IMG/VR virus record: IMGVR_UViG_3300039208_000165
Location: 2,356-66,355 of that record
DNA from: a virus
DNA length: 64,000 nucleotides
Direction: 5' to 3' (one strand)
A program made the position numbers and the translations under genes. Below are positions 17,324 through 27,928 of this stretch, piece by piece. Positions within the stretch are counted from its first letter, which is position 1. Every line of letters begins with the position of its first letter. The notes beneath the pieces were generated by a model. It worked only from the letters and a program-made list of their open reading frames with translations. It was not told where the DNA came from and ran no database searches.

Positions 17324-17727
17324 TATGCAAATGCCTCCGCGGTAATCTCTACAGAAAAAGTACTATTATTAGTACCATCATTAGTGACCTTGAAGTACAG
17401 CTGATTAGAAGCCTCAAGGTCCTCATGAAACCATACATCGTTATCAACGAATGTTCCACTTGCGGTAGCCCTGTACTCCAACTGATTCTCTGCAAAGGAG
17501 GAGTTCTTGTAGAAGTCTACCTGAAACGCCTCGATTGTAGGATCAGTAGGGGTTACCTTTAGCTTGCGAACCAAGGATCTATTGTTGAATCCCGATTCAG
17601 TAATCTCTTCGTTATCACCCTCACCTTCTACAGTGATGGTGGTGAAGCTGATTGTCTGCTTGACAGGAAAAGCATTAAGCGTAATGAACTGACCAGACTG
17701 CTGGTCATAGACCTTTAGTTGTCCCAT
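17323..17727 (-). CDS. Small beta-rich virion protein (134 aa)
   Basis: TAATG-coupled on both sides; beta-sandwich-like composition. Confidence 0.7.
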   Translation of the reverse strand: MGQLKVYDQQSGQFITLNAFPVKQTISFTTITVEGEGDNEEITESGFNNRSLVRKLKVTPTDPTIEAFQVDFYKNSSFAENQLEYRATASGTFVDNDVWFHEDLEASNQLYFKVTNDGTNNSTFSVEITAEAFA

Positions 17728-22204: not shown

Positions 22205-25200
22205 TTATCCCATTACAATTGCGGAGCCGGATTGGGACTCGCTAAAGGTTACCGTGTCAGTATTCTCACCATACTGAATGGTGGCATCAATTACATAGTT
22301 GTTGTCGTCCAGGATAGTAATCATGTGGACGATGCTTCCGATGTTGTGGGTCACGGAGACCGTGGTCTGGTCTGTAAACATCTGCTGGTACTTAGTTACA
22401 CCAGAACCACCACCGGACCCGATATTAACAGGCACGCCCGATACTGTCAAGGACTCATTAAACGTACCCGAAACAGCAGTGAATTCATCAATCTGGAAGG
22501 AAGAGTTAGTCTCTACTGCCTCGATCTGGATAAAGGTAGAATTGTTAGTAACAACGTCCAAGGACCCACCACTGTTCTGGTAAGTAAGCGCCTTTATGAC
22601 ATCCCCTGCCTGAACAGGGAATACACCTGTAAGTACGTGCGGAACGTCCGAAGTGCCTCCCACAGGAAGCATGCGGGAGAAGCCACGCCCAACCGGGGCC
22701 AAGTCATTAACCGAGAACCAGAGCTGACGATACCCGGTCTGGCTAACGTCCTGCTGGTAAACCACAGTGACATTAACTCTAACCTTGGTAACACCCTCGG
22801 GCACCACGATGGATGAGCTAGGACCATCGACCCAGCCGTCCGTATCGTACCAAGGGCTTACAGGCTCAGCCCAAACCAGCTCTGTGTTAGTAGCGTTGCT
22901 GATAGACTGATTAGCATCAAGAGCAAGTAGGGCACCATTGAACTTCTGCTTACCTACAAATCCTGGGGTCGGGGCCGGATCGACAACCTCAAGAGCGAAC
23001 ACCGCAATATTAGTATTTGGATTCGTGGTGAGGGTGACTCCAGATTCCTGACGTAGTCCGGGGGTAATGATGTCACCCTCCGAAACATCGATAACACCAC
23101 TCTCCGCTCTCTGCACAGTTTCACTTGTGGGGCTAGCCGCTATCCTACTACTAGAAACAGAAGTTCCATTCAAACTAGCAAAAGCTGTTCTCTCTCCAGT
23201 GGAGTTTTCTGGCCAAGCCACTGTGTACAGAACCTTGACCTTGTTGATTCCCGCAGGAATTACAAATCTACCCTGGTGGTCAACGTCAAAGAAACCGTCG
23301 GTGTCATAGTTTACCTGATCAAACGGGATAGCCCCAGTACCTAGGAAAACTGTGGTATTGTGAGGAATATCAATTCCACTAGTACTGGTTACCTCGGCTC
23401 CTCGGAACCCAGGCATATAGGTTCCCAGACCGCTGACCGTAATTGTGTTACCCTCGGTTACAGTACTAATCCCTCCCGCACCTGTGATAGTTACGGAAGG
23501 GCCTGTGGCAACGGTGTTAATGTCCGTAATTGTGCCAGCACCGCCTCCTGCGCCAATGTTAACTGGGACACCAGAGACCGTTAGAGACTCAGTAAAGGTG
23601 CCGCTAATAGAGGTAAATTCCGTACCACTTACGGCTACCGGATTAGCTCTCTCGATAGAGAACCAAGAAGAGGAGTTAAGGGTAGCGTCAGTAACATCCA
23701 AAGCACCGCCCGAGTCCTGGAACACCAGAACTCTAAACGTGTCTCCGGGGGCAGCCGAAATACTAAGAGTATCTGTCTGCTGAGTAAGATGTCCCGCGCT
23801 AGTAACGCCATGGTCTGTACGGTGAAGCTTACCATCCATGATGGAAGCACCGTTCTTCTGGAACTGAACAACACGGCGGCCTGCGGTGGTAGAAGCATTC
23901 CATACCATCTGTGCCTGCAACTTAACGTGGGTAATCCCTATTCCTTCCGGAACAGTAAGGATAGTGTTGTCTGATCCCAAATCAACATATCCATCGGTGT
24001 CGGAAACCAGCTCATCCCACTGGACGATATAGTTAGTAACATTAGCAACGCTTTGATTTGCGTCAAGTCTAACCGTAGCACCGGAAAAACCATCAACTGC
24101 TATAGCAGAAGTGATAGGGCTGCCGTCCACGATCAGAGACGGGGTCTGCACCTTGTCTCCATCAATCCATACGGTACCGCTACCTACCTGGAGAGATTCG
24201 GTGAACTTACCACTACCAGTTACCTGGAAGTCTACGTTACCGTCATACTCATCCCCTGTGATATGCAAGGGTTTACCTGCGACAGTAGTGATTGTACCAT
24301 CACCATTGTCGTATGCGTCTTGTAGGGTATCAGTAGAACCTCCCCCACCGCCTCCTGAAATCTGAGAGCCGCTGGCCGTAGGATCAGTCTCCACATACAT
24401 AAACCCAGCAGGTACCGGACGTACCGTACCTCCGACGTCGTGACCACGGAAGAAATTAAATACCGCCCCCGTAACAAAACCACCTTCCTCCATCATACCA
24501 AGACCGAAGGCGTCGAAAGTGGTCATGGAAGTATCTCCACCACGGTCGACCCCGGCTACCTGATACCAATCCTCTCCCGTAAAGCTGTAATGGATATCCC
24601 ACCGGTCCAAACTACCGGACCCAAACCAGGTAACATTGAGATAAAGGCCGTCTACATTAGCAGCGTCGAAATCGGCAACCGTGGCACTGACTTGGGTCGG
24701 AGATGTATCAGTATAACTGGTAAACTCCCAAGCTCCGATCTCAAATGTCGGAACATCAGCGATACGACGCATCCTAGTACCTAGAAGTAGAATATTAGAG
24801 GTAGTGGGGGCGTCCTTATCTTCCAGATAGATAATACCCTGGAAAGTTTCTACCTGCGTCTGGCTTCCAATTGCATTGGCCACACGAGTATACAACGCGT
24901 GACGCTCTGTAATAGCCGGAGACTCCTGATAAATACCTACAACTTCCTCAGCACCCGTCGGGTCATTGCCCGTGCGAAGACGGACTCTATCCTGACCATC
25001 AATTAAAGGAGGATCTTCGGTAAGATTAGAGCCTGGATCAAAAACAGTCCAACGCCCAGTATCAATGGGATCGTCTTCATTACCGATGAAGTTGTCGTCA
25101 TAAAGGACGCCGTCGATCAGAGTTCCCGTTGCGGGGAGAAGTGGGTTGTAAACACGAGCGGGCTCAAGGAACCTCTGAGAGGAACCGCCTCCGCCACTTG

Positions 25201-25375
25201 TACCGGTAGCAACAGGCTGCCCTGAAACAGTAAGCTGGGTGAAATCCCATGCCCCGGTGATATTCTGATCAGAAGTAGGATCAAAGGAAGAACCAGTTCC
25301 CGCAGCCGCAGGTACAGAGTATACGCGAGCACCGTTGACGGGAATTCTAGATTGGGTGATAACACCCCCCCTCAA
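22205..25375 (-). CDS. Modular tail-fibre/adhesin, 3' part (1056-aa ORF; probably the frameshifted continuation of 25347-27863)
   Basis: One ConA-like and three C1q-like domains plus a C-terminal THNIG domain. It has only a TTG start with no convincing SD and begins with a module that is internal in the 1982-aa fibre. Confidence 0.7.
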   Translation of the reverse strand: MRGGVITQSRIPVNGARVYSVPAAAGTGSSFDPTSDQNITGAWDFTQLTVSGQPVATGTSGGGGSSQRFLEPARVYNPLLPATGTLIDGVLYDDNFIGNEDDPIDTGRWTVFDPGSNLTEDPPLIDGQDRVRLRTGNDPTGAEEVVGIYQESPAITERHALYTRVANAIGSQTQVETFQGIIYLEDKDAPTTSNILLLGTRMRRIADVPTFEIGAWEFTSYTDTSPTQVSATVADFDAANVDGLYLNVTWFGSGSLDRWDIHYSFTGEDWYQVAGVDRGGDTSMTTFDAFGLGMMEEGGFVTGAVFNFFRGHDVGGTVRPVPAGFMYVETDPTASGSQISGGGGGGSTDTLQDAYDNGDGTITTVAGKPLHITGDEYDGNVDFQVTGSGKFTESLQVGSGTVWIDGDKVQTPSLIVDGSPITSAIAVDGFSGATVRLDANQSVANVTNYIVQWDELVSDTDGYVDLGSDNTILTVPEGIGITHVKLQAQMVWNASTTAGRRVVQFQKNGASIMDGKLHRTDHGVTSAGHLTQQTDTLSISAAPGDTFRVLVFQDSGGALDVTDATLNSSSWFSIERANPVAVSGTEFTSISGTFTESLTVSGVPVNIGAGGGAGTITDINTVATGPSVTITGAGGISTVTEGNTITVSGLGTYMPGFRGAEVTSTSGIDIPHNTTVFLGTGAIPFDQVNYDTDGFFDVDHQGRFVIPAGINKVKVLYTVAWPENSTGERTAFASLNGTSVSSSRIAASPTSETVQRAESGVIDVSEGDIITPGLRQESGVTLTTNPNTNIAVFALEVVDPAPTPGFVGKQKFNGALLALDANQSISNATNTELVWAEPVSPWYDTDGWVDGPSSSIVVPEGVTKVRVNVTVVYQQDVSQTGYRQLWFSVNDLAPVGRGFSRMLPVGGTSDVPHVLTGVFPVQAGDVIKALTYQNSGGSLDVVTNNSTFIQIEAVETNSSFQIDEFTAVSGTFNESLTVSGVPVNIGSGGGSGVTKYQQMFTDQTTVSVTHNIGSIVHMITILDDNNYVIDATIQYGENTDTVTFSESQSGSAIVMG

Positions 25376-27863
25376 TATCTCTATTGTTACCCTTCCGGAA
25401 TCGGAAATGGCTAAATCGGGTTAACCAGCCCCCACTTACATCCTCGCCGCGGCCAACAATACCGACCACGTGCGGAGTAAAGTTTAGAGTACCACTAGCT
25501 ATCTGAGGCTGAGTAACAATACTAAAAGCCCTACCATCAGTAGAATAAAGAGCAGAATATTGATTACTAAGACCGTCATACATGATCCGAAGATGCATGT
25601 CGGTTTGGAGAGGTCCGCTAGAATCCGTAGTAGAACTGTTGGTAGTAATGGCGTCATTATAATCCACGCCATTAGTAGACCAGCGGATTTGATATTGTGA
25701 GTTGTTCTCGGAACCTAAACTGGCGTTATTCTCTAGAGCAACGTAGATGAACTTCTCTGTGGTGGGACTACTAATTAAGTCACCACCAATGATTACTCCA
25801 CCCAAACCCCGGATATCGTGACGCTCTGCCATAGAAACATGAACATCAAACCAATAAGACTGCCCTCCCGAAGTGGTAGCAGCCATATCTGCGAGGGGAC
25901 GAATATAACCATTCCAGGTCGGTGTAGCGTTACCGACGTGGCTAAAACCAAAACCAGCCTCGCTCACACCCTCACCGTACTGGTTTCTCATCCGTAAATT
26001 GCCGCCCGGATCCCACTGCGTCCAAACAGGATCAGGGTCTAAAGTAAAGGCTTCACCATCGGCGTCATCAGTGAACTGGTCGAACTCGTCGTCAAACGGG
26101 CTCGGGTATGTTGGAGGAGCCATGGGGTCAAAATAACCACCGGAAGCAGTGGTAGAACCACCGCCGCTCCCGCCTTCTAGCGGAACAGGTACTCCAGAAA
26201 TAGTCAAAGAATCTGTTACGTTAATTGTTCCAATTGTAAGAGGATCTTCTACTCCCCCACCTCCGCCGGTAGGATCAATGTAGTTACCCAGAATCGGAAT
26301 ACCTCTACTCCCCGAACCAAGGAACCTAGGATCGATGCGGAAGAACTTAGCAGTGAAGTTATTCAACGAGGAAGAGTTAGCATTGTTCGCAATAATACCA
26401 ATCTGATCTATATCAAAAGGAAGAGGGTATGGGTACCAAGAGAAAGTACCCCACCCATACCCGTCGAAAGAGTAATGAAGATCAAAGGAATCATTGTTAC
26501 CGTCCCGTGCTGAAATCTTCAGGAACACCCCGGGATACATGAGATCGCCGCCGTCCGTGATGATGTCAGTATTAGAAGGGGTCTCATCATCCCAATCATC
26601 AAAGGTCTCTCTAACAATAGAGAACCCAGTGCTATCTGCCAACAGGCCCATAAAGACAAAATCGGTGGTTCCCGGATTACCTGCCACATCATCAAAGAGG
26701 CCGAAGCCTACTCGAAGACTGCGTCCTGCAGATAGAGTGTCAGTACTTCCAATACTTACGTAAGTAATAGCCTCCCACAAGGACTCTGTAGGGATGTCTT
26801 TGTAAATACCAAAGAACTGAATATCACCAGTCGAGGTGTTACCAAAATTAGACATCCGGAGACCGCCGCCGTCAGCATGCGTCTCAATAATAGAAGCCTG
26901 TCCGCCCTCATCCCATACAGACCAGCCGCCCTGGGCAAGAGTACCAGTCACAGCTACTCCGGCTACGAACTCATCGTCATACTGAGTACCGGAAGCGGGG
27001 GCAAGGAAGGGGCTCCAGACGGTTCCAGAAGAAGGAATCTGACCAATGCCTCCGCCCCCGGACCCGCCAGTAGCAAAATCCAGCGTAATAGAACCGCCAC
27101 CTTCATCAGTCAGGGACCCTGGCGGAACATTAATAACTGAAACTCCAGAAACTACAGGGTCCCCGTCGGTCTCTTGTACCGTTAGAGGGGAAGTCCCCAC
27201 AGCATAGCCCTCGATAGAGAAAGAGCTTTGATCGAAATCCGAATCGATAGTGGCCTGAGTAGCGGCGGCCAGTACCTCAAATCTATCGCCTGCAGAAACA
27301 GGGATTAGGGGAGATACCACTTGCTGTAAGTGAGAAGTAGTGAATCCCACAGTCCTCTTGTCTGCAACAGAGGGTGTCAATGTTGCAGCGTCACCGTCGA
27401 CGATGGCGACAGTTGTAGTATTGGTGGCCGTTGCGGGGTCCCACCTAACCTGGGCAAGAATTCTTACATGAGTAATTCCCAAACCAGCAGGAACTACTAA
27501 CTCGTCGTTAGCTAGATCTGCCCAGGAATCTGTATCATAAACTACTTCTTGCCAAGTTACTCGGGCATTTGAGGGATTAACCTGATCGTTACCGGTAAGC
27601 TTACGGAGCTTAGCAGCAGAAACCATATTACTTACGGCCCCGCCGCCTCCGGACCCGCCCTCAAGAGGCACTGGTACTCCAGAGATGGTCAAGGAGTCGG
27701 AAAATACACCAGAAGCCAAAACTAACGGATCAGGGATAGCTCCGCCCACAGGGCTGTCAGTAGTTAGAACTGGAGCCCCAGACAGCGTTACGGAATCCGT
27801 AAAGATTCCGGACGGTACAGTCAGAGTTCCAACTACATTTAGATCCGCATTATGTTGTGCCAT
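25347..27863 (-). CDS. Modular tail-fibre/adhesin, 5' part (838 aa)
   Basis: ATG with GAGG SD; one C1q-like and two YDDEF/FDDEF...W..WD.GG ConA-like domains; ends 6 codons after a G7 run. Confidence 0.75.
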   Translation of the reverse strand: MAQHNADLNVVGTLTVPSGIFTDSVTLSGAPVLTTDSPVGGAIPDPLVLASGVFSDSLTISGVPVPLEGGSGGGGAVSNMVSAAKLRKLTGNDQVNPSNARVTWQEVVYDTDSWADLANDELVVPAGLGITHVRILAQVRWDPATATNTTTVAIVDGDAATLTPSVADKRTVGFTTSHLQQVVSPLIPVSAGDRFEVLAAATQATIDSDFDQSSFSIEGYAVGTSPLTVQETDGDPVVSGVSVINVPPGSLTDEGGGSITLDFATGGSGGGGIGQIPSSGTVWSPFLAPASGTQYDDEFVAGVAVTGTLAQGGWSVWDEGGQASIIETHADGGGLRMSNFGNTSTGDIQFFGIYKDIPTESLWEAITYVSIGSTDTLSAGRSLRVGFGLFDDVAGNPGTTDFVFMGLLADSTGFSIVRETFDDWDDETPSNTDIITDGGDLMYPGVFLKISARDGNNDSFDLHYSFDGYGWGTFSWYPYPLPFDIDQIGIIANNANSSSLNNFTAKFFRIDPRFLGSGSRGIPILGNYIDPTGGGGGVEDPLTIGTINVTDSLTISGVPVPLEGGSGGGSTTASGGYFDPMAPPTYPSPFDDEFDQFTDDADGEAFTLDPDPVWTQWDPGGNLRMRNQYGEGVSEAGFGFSHVGNATPTWNGYIRPLADMAATTSGGQSYWFDVHVSMAERHDIRGLGGVIIGGDLISSPTTEKFIYVALENNASLGSENNSQYQIRWSTNGVDYNDAITTNSSTTDSSGPLQTDMHLRIMYDGLSNQYSALYSTDGRAFSIVTQPQIASGTLNFTPHVVGIVGRGEDVSGGWLTRFSHFRFRKGNNRDIEGGCYHPI
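25365..25371 (-). repeat. G7 homopolymer (C7 on + strand) at the junction of two fibre ORFs
   Basis: TTGA-GGGGGGG-TGTT. Losing one G, or a +1 shift, joins the 838- and 1056-aa frames. Confidence 0.85.
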
Positions 27864-27873
27864 TAGTCCTCTT

Positions 27874-27895
27874 TAGGTGGAGGTATGTCCACCTA
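27874..27895. repeat. Inverted repeat TAGGTGGA-GGTATG-TCCACCTA
   Basis: Perfect 8-bp stem in the 66-bp intergenic gap, directly upstream of the GAGG SD of the 838-aa gene. Confidence 0.75.
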
Positions 27896-27899
27896 CCTA

Positions 27900-27928
27900 A
27901 TAATATTTCACACATCCAATCTGGGCAA
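27900..27928 (-). promoter_or_regulatory. Possible internal sigma70-type promoter
   Basis: Minus strand TTGCCC (27928-27923), 17-nt spacer, TATTAT (27905-27900), in the only large intergenic gap within the fibre cluster. Confidence 0.45.

Follow-up and report, generated by a model that had tools for sequence, protein, structure and literature searches.

We uncovered, in an environmental phage, a single modular tail-fibre gene that is split into two reading frames by one additional base in a run of seven G residues. Our analysis points, with moderate confidence, to a slippage-derived frameshift allele of this lineage: a G6 run would have been lengthened to G7, the change would have become fixed in the sampled population with truncation of the fibre as its consequence, and it could still revert. 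The gene lies in a 64-kb stretch of DNA, hereafter the window, which comprises bases 2356-66355 of a 95,333-bp IMG/VR viral record. Almost every gene in the window is carried on the minus strand. A replication block coding for homologs of DnaB, primase, a RecA-like protein, SSB and the sliding clamp (recognized by synteny with a relative, L016) is followed by a structural block of giant genes with products of 2634, 2203, 2027, 1982, 1245, 1220 and 1083 aa, and the split fibre gene sits among these giant structural genes in the virion structural module.

The 5′ part of the gene is ORF A (838 aa; 25347-27863, minus strand), which ends in TAG, and the 3′ part is ORF B (1056 aa when counted from a TTG; 22205-25375, minus strand). 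ORF A begins with a conserved anchor-like segment (residues 1-41) and also contains one beta module of the repeated kind and a pair of ConA-like domains, at about residues 251-560 and 560-833. ORF B opens with the terminal strand of the second ConA-like domain (IPVNGARVYS), which is followed by a third ConA-like domain, by beta modules joined through SGTFxESLTVSGVPVNIG linkers and by a C-terminal domain in common with the homolog P0009. ORF B is related to phrog_13989 (“virion structural protein”; E 4.6e-29), and tblastn recovers 26-31% identity to a “putative tail protein” of Xanthomonas phage Mallos and a “tail fiber protein” of an Arcanobacterium phage. On the basis of these similarities, the gene is predicted to code for a tail fibre of the receptor-binding type with a role in virion attachment and receptor binding.

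The fibre locus as a whole is expanded: window positions 18944-39966 correspond to L016:10001-17056, and in place of the two fibre genes of L016 (1501 and 715 aa) the window carries four large modular ones (2027, 1982, 838+1056 and 1083 aa). These paralogous fibres carry shuffled modules, including two kinds of ConA-like domains, repeated beta modules and SGTFxESLTVSGVPV linkers. A syntenic relative assembled in Logan SRR22808021 measures 95,546 bp against the 95,333 bp of the present record; CheckV rates the record as 32% complete, and the two may nevertheless be near-complete genomes of ~95 kb.

The break can be read directly in the sequence. On the minus strand the letters run GAT ATT GAG GGG GGG TGT TAT CAC CCA ATC TAG, with the G7 homopolymer at 25365-25371 (C7 on the plus strand), and removal of one G yields a single open frame of 1885 codons plus a stop, reading ...DIEGGVITQSRIPVNGARVY..., just as the original prediction had it. 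In this G6 version the codons GAG GGG GGT (E-G-G) lead in frame into ORF B, and a change of one base in either direction at this intragenic run toggles the reading frame. The run lies mid-gene, at codon 832 of 1885. Both frames are open over 25347-25423 of the minus strand, i.e., from the +1-frame TAA (25421-25423) to the 0-frame TAG (25347-25349), an overlap of ~25 codons around the run, and it is here, at the G tract, that the homology to relatives leaves frame 0 and continues in frame +1; the 0-frame TAG lies 6 codons past the run and is not adjacent to it. The earlier argument that the fused product resembles its 1982- and 2027-aa neighbours in size carries no weight, since homologs of the gene range from 1062 to 2265 aa.

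Such a run is exceptional in this genome. The G7 tract is the only G/C run of at least 7 in the 95,333-bp record, which has ~180 runs of 5 and ten of 6. In the coding DNA of the window, only 3 G/C runs of at least 6 are observed, as against 18.3 ± 4.3 expected from synonymous-codon shuffles, a roughly six-fold depletion; likewise, with the G7 tract itself excluded, runs of at least 7 number 0 against 4.4 ± 2.0 in the shuffles. This depletion suggests that selection acts against slippage-prone runs in this genome. Given that the tract is the sole G/C run of its length in the record and that runs of at least 6 are strongly depleted, the coincidence of a G7 with a split gene is more than one would attribute to chance. 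The depletion holds despite the very glycine-rich proteins encoded by the large minus-strand ORFs. Separately, a single A8 run is found outside the window at genome position 75929-75936.

Comparison with homologs shows that the two ORFs descend from one gene. The ConA-like domain that closes ORF A has few relatives in large protein collections (~15 billion proteins), namely P0009 (1062 aa, with 53-55% identity over the domain), P0010 (1367 aa; 52-54%), P0006 (2265 aa; 45-46%) and P0007 (1501 aa; 47% by BLASTP and 34% in the HMMER listing). In each of these proteins the domain occupies an internal position with further sequence beyond it, and BLASTP aligns the read-through translation to all four without a gap over the break (FRFRKGNNRDIEGGVITQSRIPVNGARVYS versus FRFRTNQDRNAGASRITISRLPLLGRRVFA). 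As a test free of circularity, a profile HMM was built from these four homologs alone: its positions 11-279 match ORF A (E 1e-111), and positions 283-336 match ORF B, which lies in the other frame (i-E 1.4e-5). P0009 and P0010 begin much as ORF A does, with 76-78% identity between the N-terminal segments (76% over 41 residues for P0009). P0009 is collinear with the fused reading, its residues 60-406 corresponding to fused residues 544-894 and spanning the break, such that its N-terminus matches ORF A and its C-terminus matches ORF B. It also occupies the same syntenic slot, being followed by genes for proteins of 1018, 120, 280, 134, 314 and 296 aa, while those downstream of the fibre in the window encode 1083, 120, 281, 134, 315 and 296 aa. 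Thus, the gapless read-through in four relatives, combined with a homolog that joins both ends in the same slot, establishes that the gene was ancestrally one.

The motif evidence is in line with this. When 22 copies of this type of domain, drawn from the window and from relatives, are aligned, the FFR strand is followed by a P-x-x-G motif whose G is conserved to at least 90%, and the corresponding motif of the split gene (IPVNG) is encoded in the +1 frame; the likeness of IPVNG to the segment that follows the other ConA-like domains, which had been noticed earlier, is therefore real. The module FDPTSDQNITGAWDF of ORF B, which had been described as opening this ORF while being internal in the 1982-aa fibre, indeed recurs inside that neighbour as LDPSQDQTITGNWDF. 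Searches of phage collections with 3 kb of the gene at the DNA level returned no match; among viral contigs, the C-terminal part of ORF A recovered no related loci, and the N-terminus of ORF B recovered just a motif of 23-33 residues in unrelated contigs.

One might alternatively view the two ORFs as genuine separate genes, with ORF B made as a distinct fibre subunit through initiation at the TTG (25375) or through reinitiation. What could be taken in its favor is that ORF B starts ~45 residues before LTVSGQPV, a similar motif being placed ~25-30 residues into other fibre proteins of this locus. However, the TTG is the only start candidate, it overlaps the G run, and it has no Shine-Dalgarno sequence before it, the preceding sequence being just AATAGAGATA; the other genes in the window have motifs of the AGGAG/GAGG type and start mostly with ATG, which bears out the original prediction of an ORF with only a TTG and no clear ribosome-binding site. 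The next in-frame ATG lies ~200 codons further downstream. Moreover, homology to the relatives is continuous through both frames, every homolog is a single uninterrupted ORF, and the two-frame layout is conserved in none of them. The outcome that would have spoken against a split gene, namely homologs consistently organized as two genes with independent starts, thus fails to appear, and we regard separate subunits as highly improbable. ORF A and ORF B are better described as one fibre gene split at the G run, with gapless homologs and no credible start for its distal half.

The beginning of the gene has features of its own. ORF A is preceded by a 66-nt gap, which is unusual in this tightly packed operon, and its orthologs have gaps of ~70 nt. 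The gap contains an element (27875-27928, minus strand) comprising a −35-like TTGCCC (27928-27923), a 17-nt spacer, a −10-like TATTAT (27905-27900) and a 7-bp hairpin (27894-27875), which directly precedes the Shine-Dalgarno sequence AAAGAGGA and the ATG of ORF A at 27863. The promoter-like match of 9/12 is, by itself, not above shuffles. Nevertheless, the same layout (TTGCnn-17-TATTAT/TATAAT, a 7-bp hairpin, GAGGA and ATG) is found in four diverged loci whose proteins are only ~50% identical, with counterparts at L019:2655-2727, L021:4889-4958 and L017:4407-4479, and the hairpin displays one compensatory GC-to-AU pair change among them. It is this conservation in four loci, rather than the single-sequence match, that lends weight to the dedicated promoter that had been suggested as a possibility. 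Hence, judged by its conserved layout, the element is probably such a promoter with a 5′-UTR stem-loop.

Homopolymers are a classic site of indel errors, and it might be asked if the true sequence is G6 and the gene intact. G7 is present in three out of three consensus assemblies: the 95-kb record, a contig from JGI 3300038492 (L022) and one from Logan SRR4039775 (L018). Over 5,017 of its 5,036 bp, G7 included, the latter matches the window without a difference, and its two gene calls likewise overlap by 29 nt. L022, which is part of a 39.6-kb contig, represents a different consensus haplotype that differs from the window over 13.3 kb by 12 substitutions, all within 17481-17587. At least two pipelines (JGI and Logan) therefore give G7 in three assemblies, one of which has another haplotype in a neighbouring gene, even if these assemblies possibly derive from related or overlapping read sets, may have a sequencing platform in common, and as consensus sequences hide minority alleles such as G6. 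Further, ~20 neighbouring genes are intact, the replication genes have the order and lengths of their L016 counterparts, and all other long structural ORFs of the 64-kb window are uninterrupted despite the many runs of 5 and 6 in the record. Recovery of G7 from three assemblies, along with neighbours that are intact in spite of these short runs, makes both a pervasive indel problem and an assembler-specific error unlikely. By the test of the assemblies, then, the possibility of an error that the original prediction had raised has only a slight chance of being correct; the G7 is a genuine inherited one-base insertion. The substituted patch of ~100 bp falls in a minus-strand gene for a 134-aa protein, with 9 synonymous and 3 amino-acid-changing differences when counted by nucleotide, two of them in codon 50, and is suggestive of either a patch of recombination or local hypervariability.

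The tract was also sought in other length states. The available consensus sequences are all nearly identical, and no G6 or G8 allele is on record. A scan of viral and metagenome contigs for the pattern with G5-G9 gave no match, near-identical records possibly lying outside the scanned set. An in-frame product of ~1885 aa is absent from ~15 billion proteins, where the clusters of the two halves hold only the calls from this phage. A further contig, L023 (Logan SRR4039776), starts at the equivalent of window position 25315, which places its break 50 nt downstream of the G run, too far for a simple tract-length bubble to be its cause; no repeated 31-mer accounts for the break, and it may represent a coverage gap or a nearby variant in the SRR4039776 sample.

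The run is furthermore restricted to this lineage: none of the five homolog loci (L016, L017, L019, L020 and L021) has a homopolymer at the break site; the residues there are AGTG, AGAS or SSVS, specified by mixed codons such as GCC GGA ACC GGC, GCA GGT GCG TCT and AGT TCA GTC AGC. Most likely, polymerase slippage added one G to a G6 run in the single modular fibre gene. Phage homopolymers of at least 6 slip measurably: in T2/T4, mutants at such repeats were found at frequencies of about 1e-4 to 1e-3 (Gomez et al. 2025, bioRxiv 10.1101/2025.10.21.683753). Translation of the G7 allele would end 6 codons after the run and produce the 838-aa form, which retains the attachment segment at its N-terminus together with both of its ConA-like lectin domains, and the distal ~1,055 codons, coding for the third lectin domain, the beta modules and the C-terminal domain, would remain untranslated save for rare spontaneous slippage. 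A later slip of −1G or +2G would bring back the 1885-aa form. The distal ~1,055 codons are still wholly open, which fits a recent event but equally fits their continued use through reversion or recoding. We accordingly view the G run as a potential contingency locus that arose as a lineage-specific accident in a short run, rather than as a demonstrated or conserved switch.

What the truncation might mean for the protein can be judged from the domain that carries the break. An AF2 model of this domain read across the break attained a pLDDT of 75.8 and a pTM of 0.80 with an alignment of 22 sequences as input (a 5-sequence alignment gave an unusable model with a pLDDT of 37). Foldseek relates it to legume lectins, GH43 C-terminal domains and staphylococcal L-lectin adhesin domains (E about 1e-6), and VIA-align superimposes it on 6ms3_A with a Z of 16.3 and an rmsd of 2.9 over 184 aligned residues, with further matches to the central fibre gp20 of mycobacteriophage Douge (Z 13.3) and the CBM2 of the phage J-1 Dit (Z 12.9). 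By this modelled structure the domain is a ConA-like lectin/glucanase beta-sandwich. Pfam ConA-like families, such as Laminin_G_3, do not match it even at E <= 1; the Laminin_G_3 matches seen in P0003 concern another domain type. In the model the core spans residues 15-257, with its last strand at 242-254, and the break falls at 263, such that the sole piece encoded in the +1 frame is the terminal strand at 275-279 (RVYSV). Since the core strands of the second ConA-like domain are all encoded before the break, the 838-aa form probably still folds and ends in a lectin-like domain. We had considered that ORF A must misfold, in the expectation of a break inside the core, and dropped this notion on finding it past the last core strand. 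The short form would be devoid of the P-x-x-G tail, which is retained even in naturally C-terminal copies of the domain, e.g., P0005, which ends ...GRLIPLPTL.

These observations bear on the switch between short and long adhesin forms that the earlier account proposed. In the fuller reading considered here, the run would be an operating and adaptively maintained phase-variation switch, wherein high-rate flips keep both short- and long-fibre virions in the population as a form of host-range bet-hedging. The location of the run in a gene of the receptor-binding type, where a one-base change toggles the frame, is what one would expect of such a switch, as is the intact distal ORF; the retention of the run stands out in a genome that purges G/C runs, and the short form, ending after a complete lectin-domain core, is plausibly functional. 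Precedents include the polyG tracts in receptor-binding genes of Campylobacter phages, as related in passages of PMC10579305 and PMC10877375, and the contingency loci of T2/T4. Against this, all three assemblies have G7, albeit as consensus sequences blind to minority alleles, the in-frame 1885-aa product is absent from the protein collections, and the run is just 7 long and missing from all five homolog loci. The general avoidance of G/C runs in this genome likewise speaks against an evolved switch or recoding site. A working switch is thus not supported so far, with every consensus at G7 and neither an in-frame allele nor a homopolymer in the homologs, and we consider it unlikely; a frameshift allele born of slippage in this lineage fits better.

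Another reading invokes recoding of a stable G7 message: ribosomes would shift by +1 (or −2) on G GGG GGG, or RNA polymerase would slip, such that the 838-aa and ~1885-aa forms are made in a set ratio. Both would then have a common anchor with different lectin modules, constituting a fibre analogue of the G/GT and 10A/10B pairs, but with a +1 shift. The site does combine a slippery G GGG GGG with two frames open over 25347-25423, tRNA-Gly could re-pair in the new frame anywhere in the run, G7 seems stable in three assemblies, and the distal ORF is intact. However, the site is conserved in 0 homologs, and no stimulatory element is discernible at the G7: the folding of RNA downstream of and around the run is not above that of shuffled controls (z −0.94 and +0.34), and the 0-frame stop, being 6 codons off, is not in the A site when the ribosome is at the run. 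Quadruplet decoding by a phage-encoded frameshift-suppressor tRNA is rejected, as the 95-kb record holds no tRNA genes, and G runs are poor sites for transcriptional slippage relative to A/T runs. A product of the −1 frame was likewise dropped; that frame is open for only 84 codons after the run and is without homology. The lack of structure, the placement of the stop, the missing tRNA and the unconserved run together argue against an evolved frameshift signal, while leaving phase variation unproven. The +1 recoding site of the original prediction thus finds no support so far from RNA structure or from a homopolymer in homologs, and we deem it distinctly improbable. With the lineage-specific slippage allele as the favored explanation, the main practical value of the finding, as things stand, lies in annotation: the public calls of 759/838 aa and 1056 aa are two halves of one frameshifted fibre gene.

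This locus can be set against several known systems. Programmed frameshifts are exemplified by lambda G/GT and T7 10A/10B, both of which are −1, and by prfB, which is +1; their sites are conserved among relatives and come with defined stimulators, which may be an SD-like sequence upstream, a stop in frame where the shift occurs, or a structure downstream. The present gene resembles lambda G/GT and T7 10A/10B in being a structural gene with overlapping frames, a slippery G run and a potential common N-terminus for two products; unlike in lambda, T7 and prfB, neither the stimulators nor the conservation are found at the G7, and the shift needed is +1 or −2. Intragenic homopolymeric tracts also underlie phase variation in bacteria, such as Campylobacter, Neisseria and Bordetella (e.g., PMC1891110, PMC2831843). 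As in these, a coding G/C run in a surface-interaction gene would be subject to slipped-strand mispairing; here, however, the gene belongs to a phage and the consensus is G7 throughout.

A further comparison is with the contingency loci of T2/T4, namely single-base repeats of at least 6 in genes such as agt and rIIA (Gomez, Barrick & Waters 2025, bioRxiv 10.1101/2025.10.21.683753). Like the G7 tract, they are short homopolymers in phage genes. Polymerase slippage, also the likely source of the G7, adds or removes single bases in them, with reversion far more frequent than for point mutations. These runs, however, consist of A and lie in accessory genes, their mutant frequencies have been measured, and such repeats are reported to be under-represented in genes of the tail-fibre type (Gomez et al. 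2025). Another parallel is with the Campylobacter Fletchervirus phages, for which hypermutable polyG tracts in receptor-binding protein genes are described (Sorensen et al. 2021, Cell Rep 35:109214, as cited in passages of PMC10579305 and PMC10877375): there too, a G homopolymer in a phage host-recognition gene toggles the frame, and with it the form of the fibre, by a change of one base. In the Fletchervirus case the citing passages report both tract-length variation and the attendant phenotype, whereas the tract described here is G7 in three of three consensus assemblies, short, mid-gene and absent from relatives. If the run does switch, the few phage groups with demonstrated homopolymer-driven variation of their fibres would be joined by an environmental phage with an expanded array of giant lectin-domain fibres, and the locus would provide a natural pair of short and long isoforms for the study of modular host recognition.
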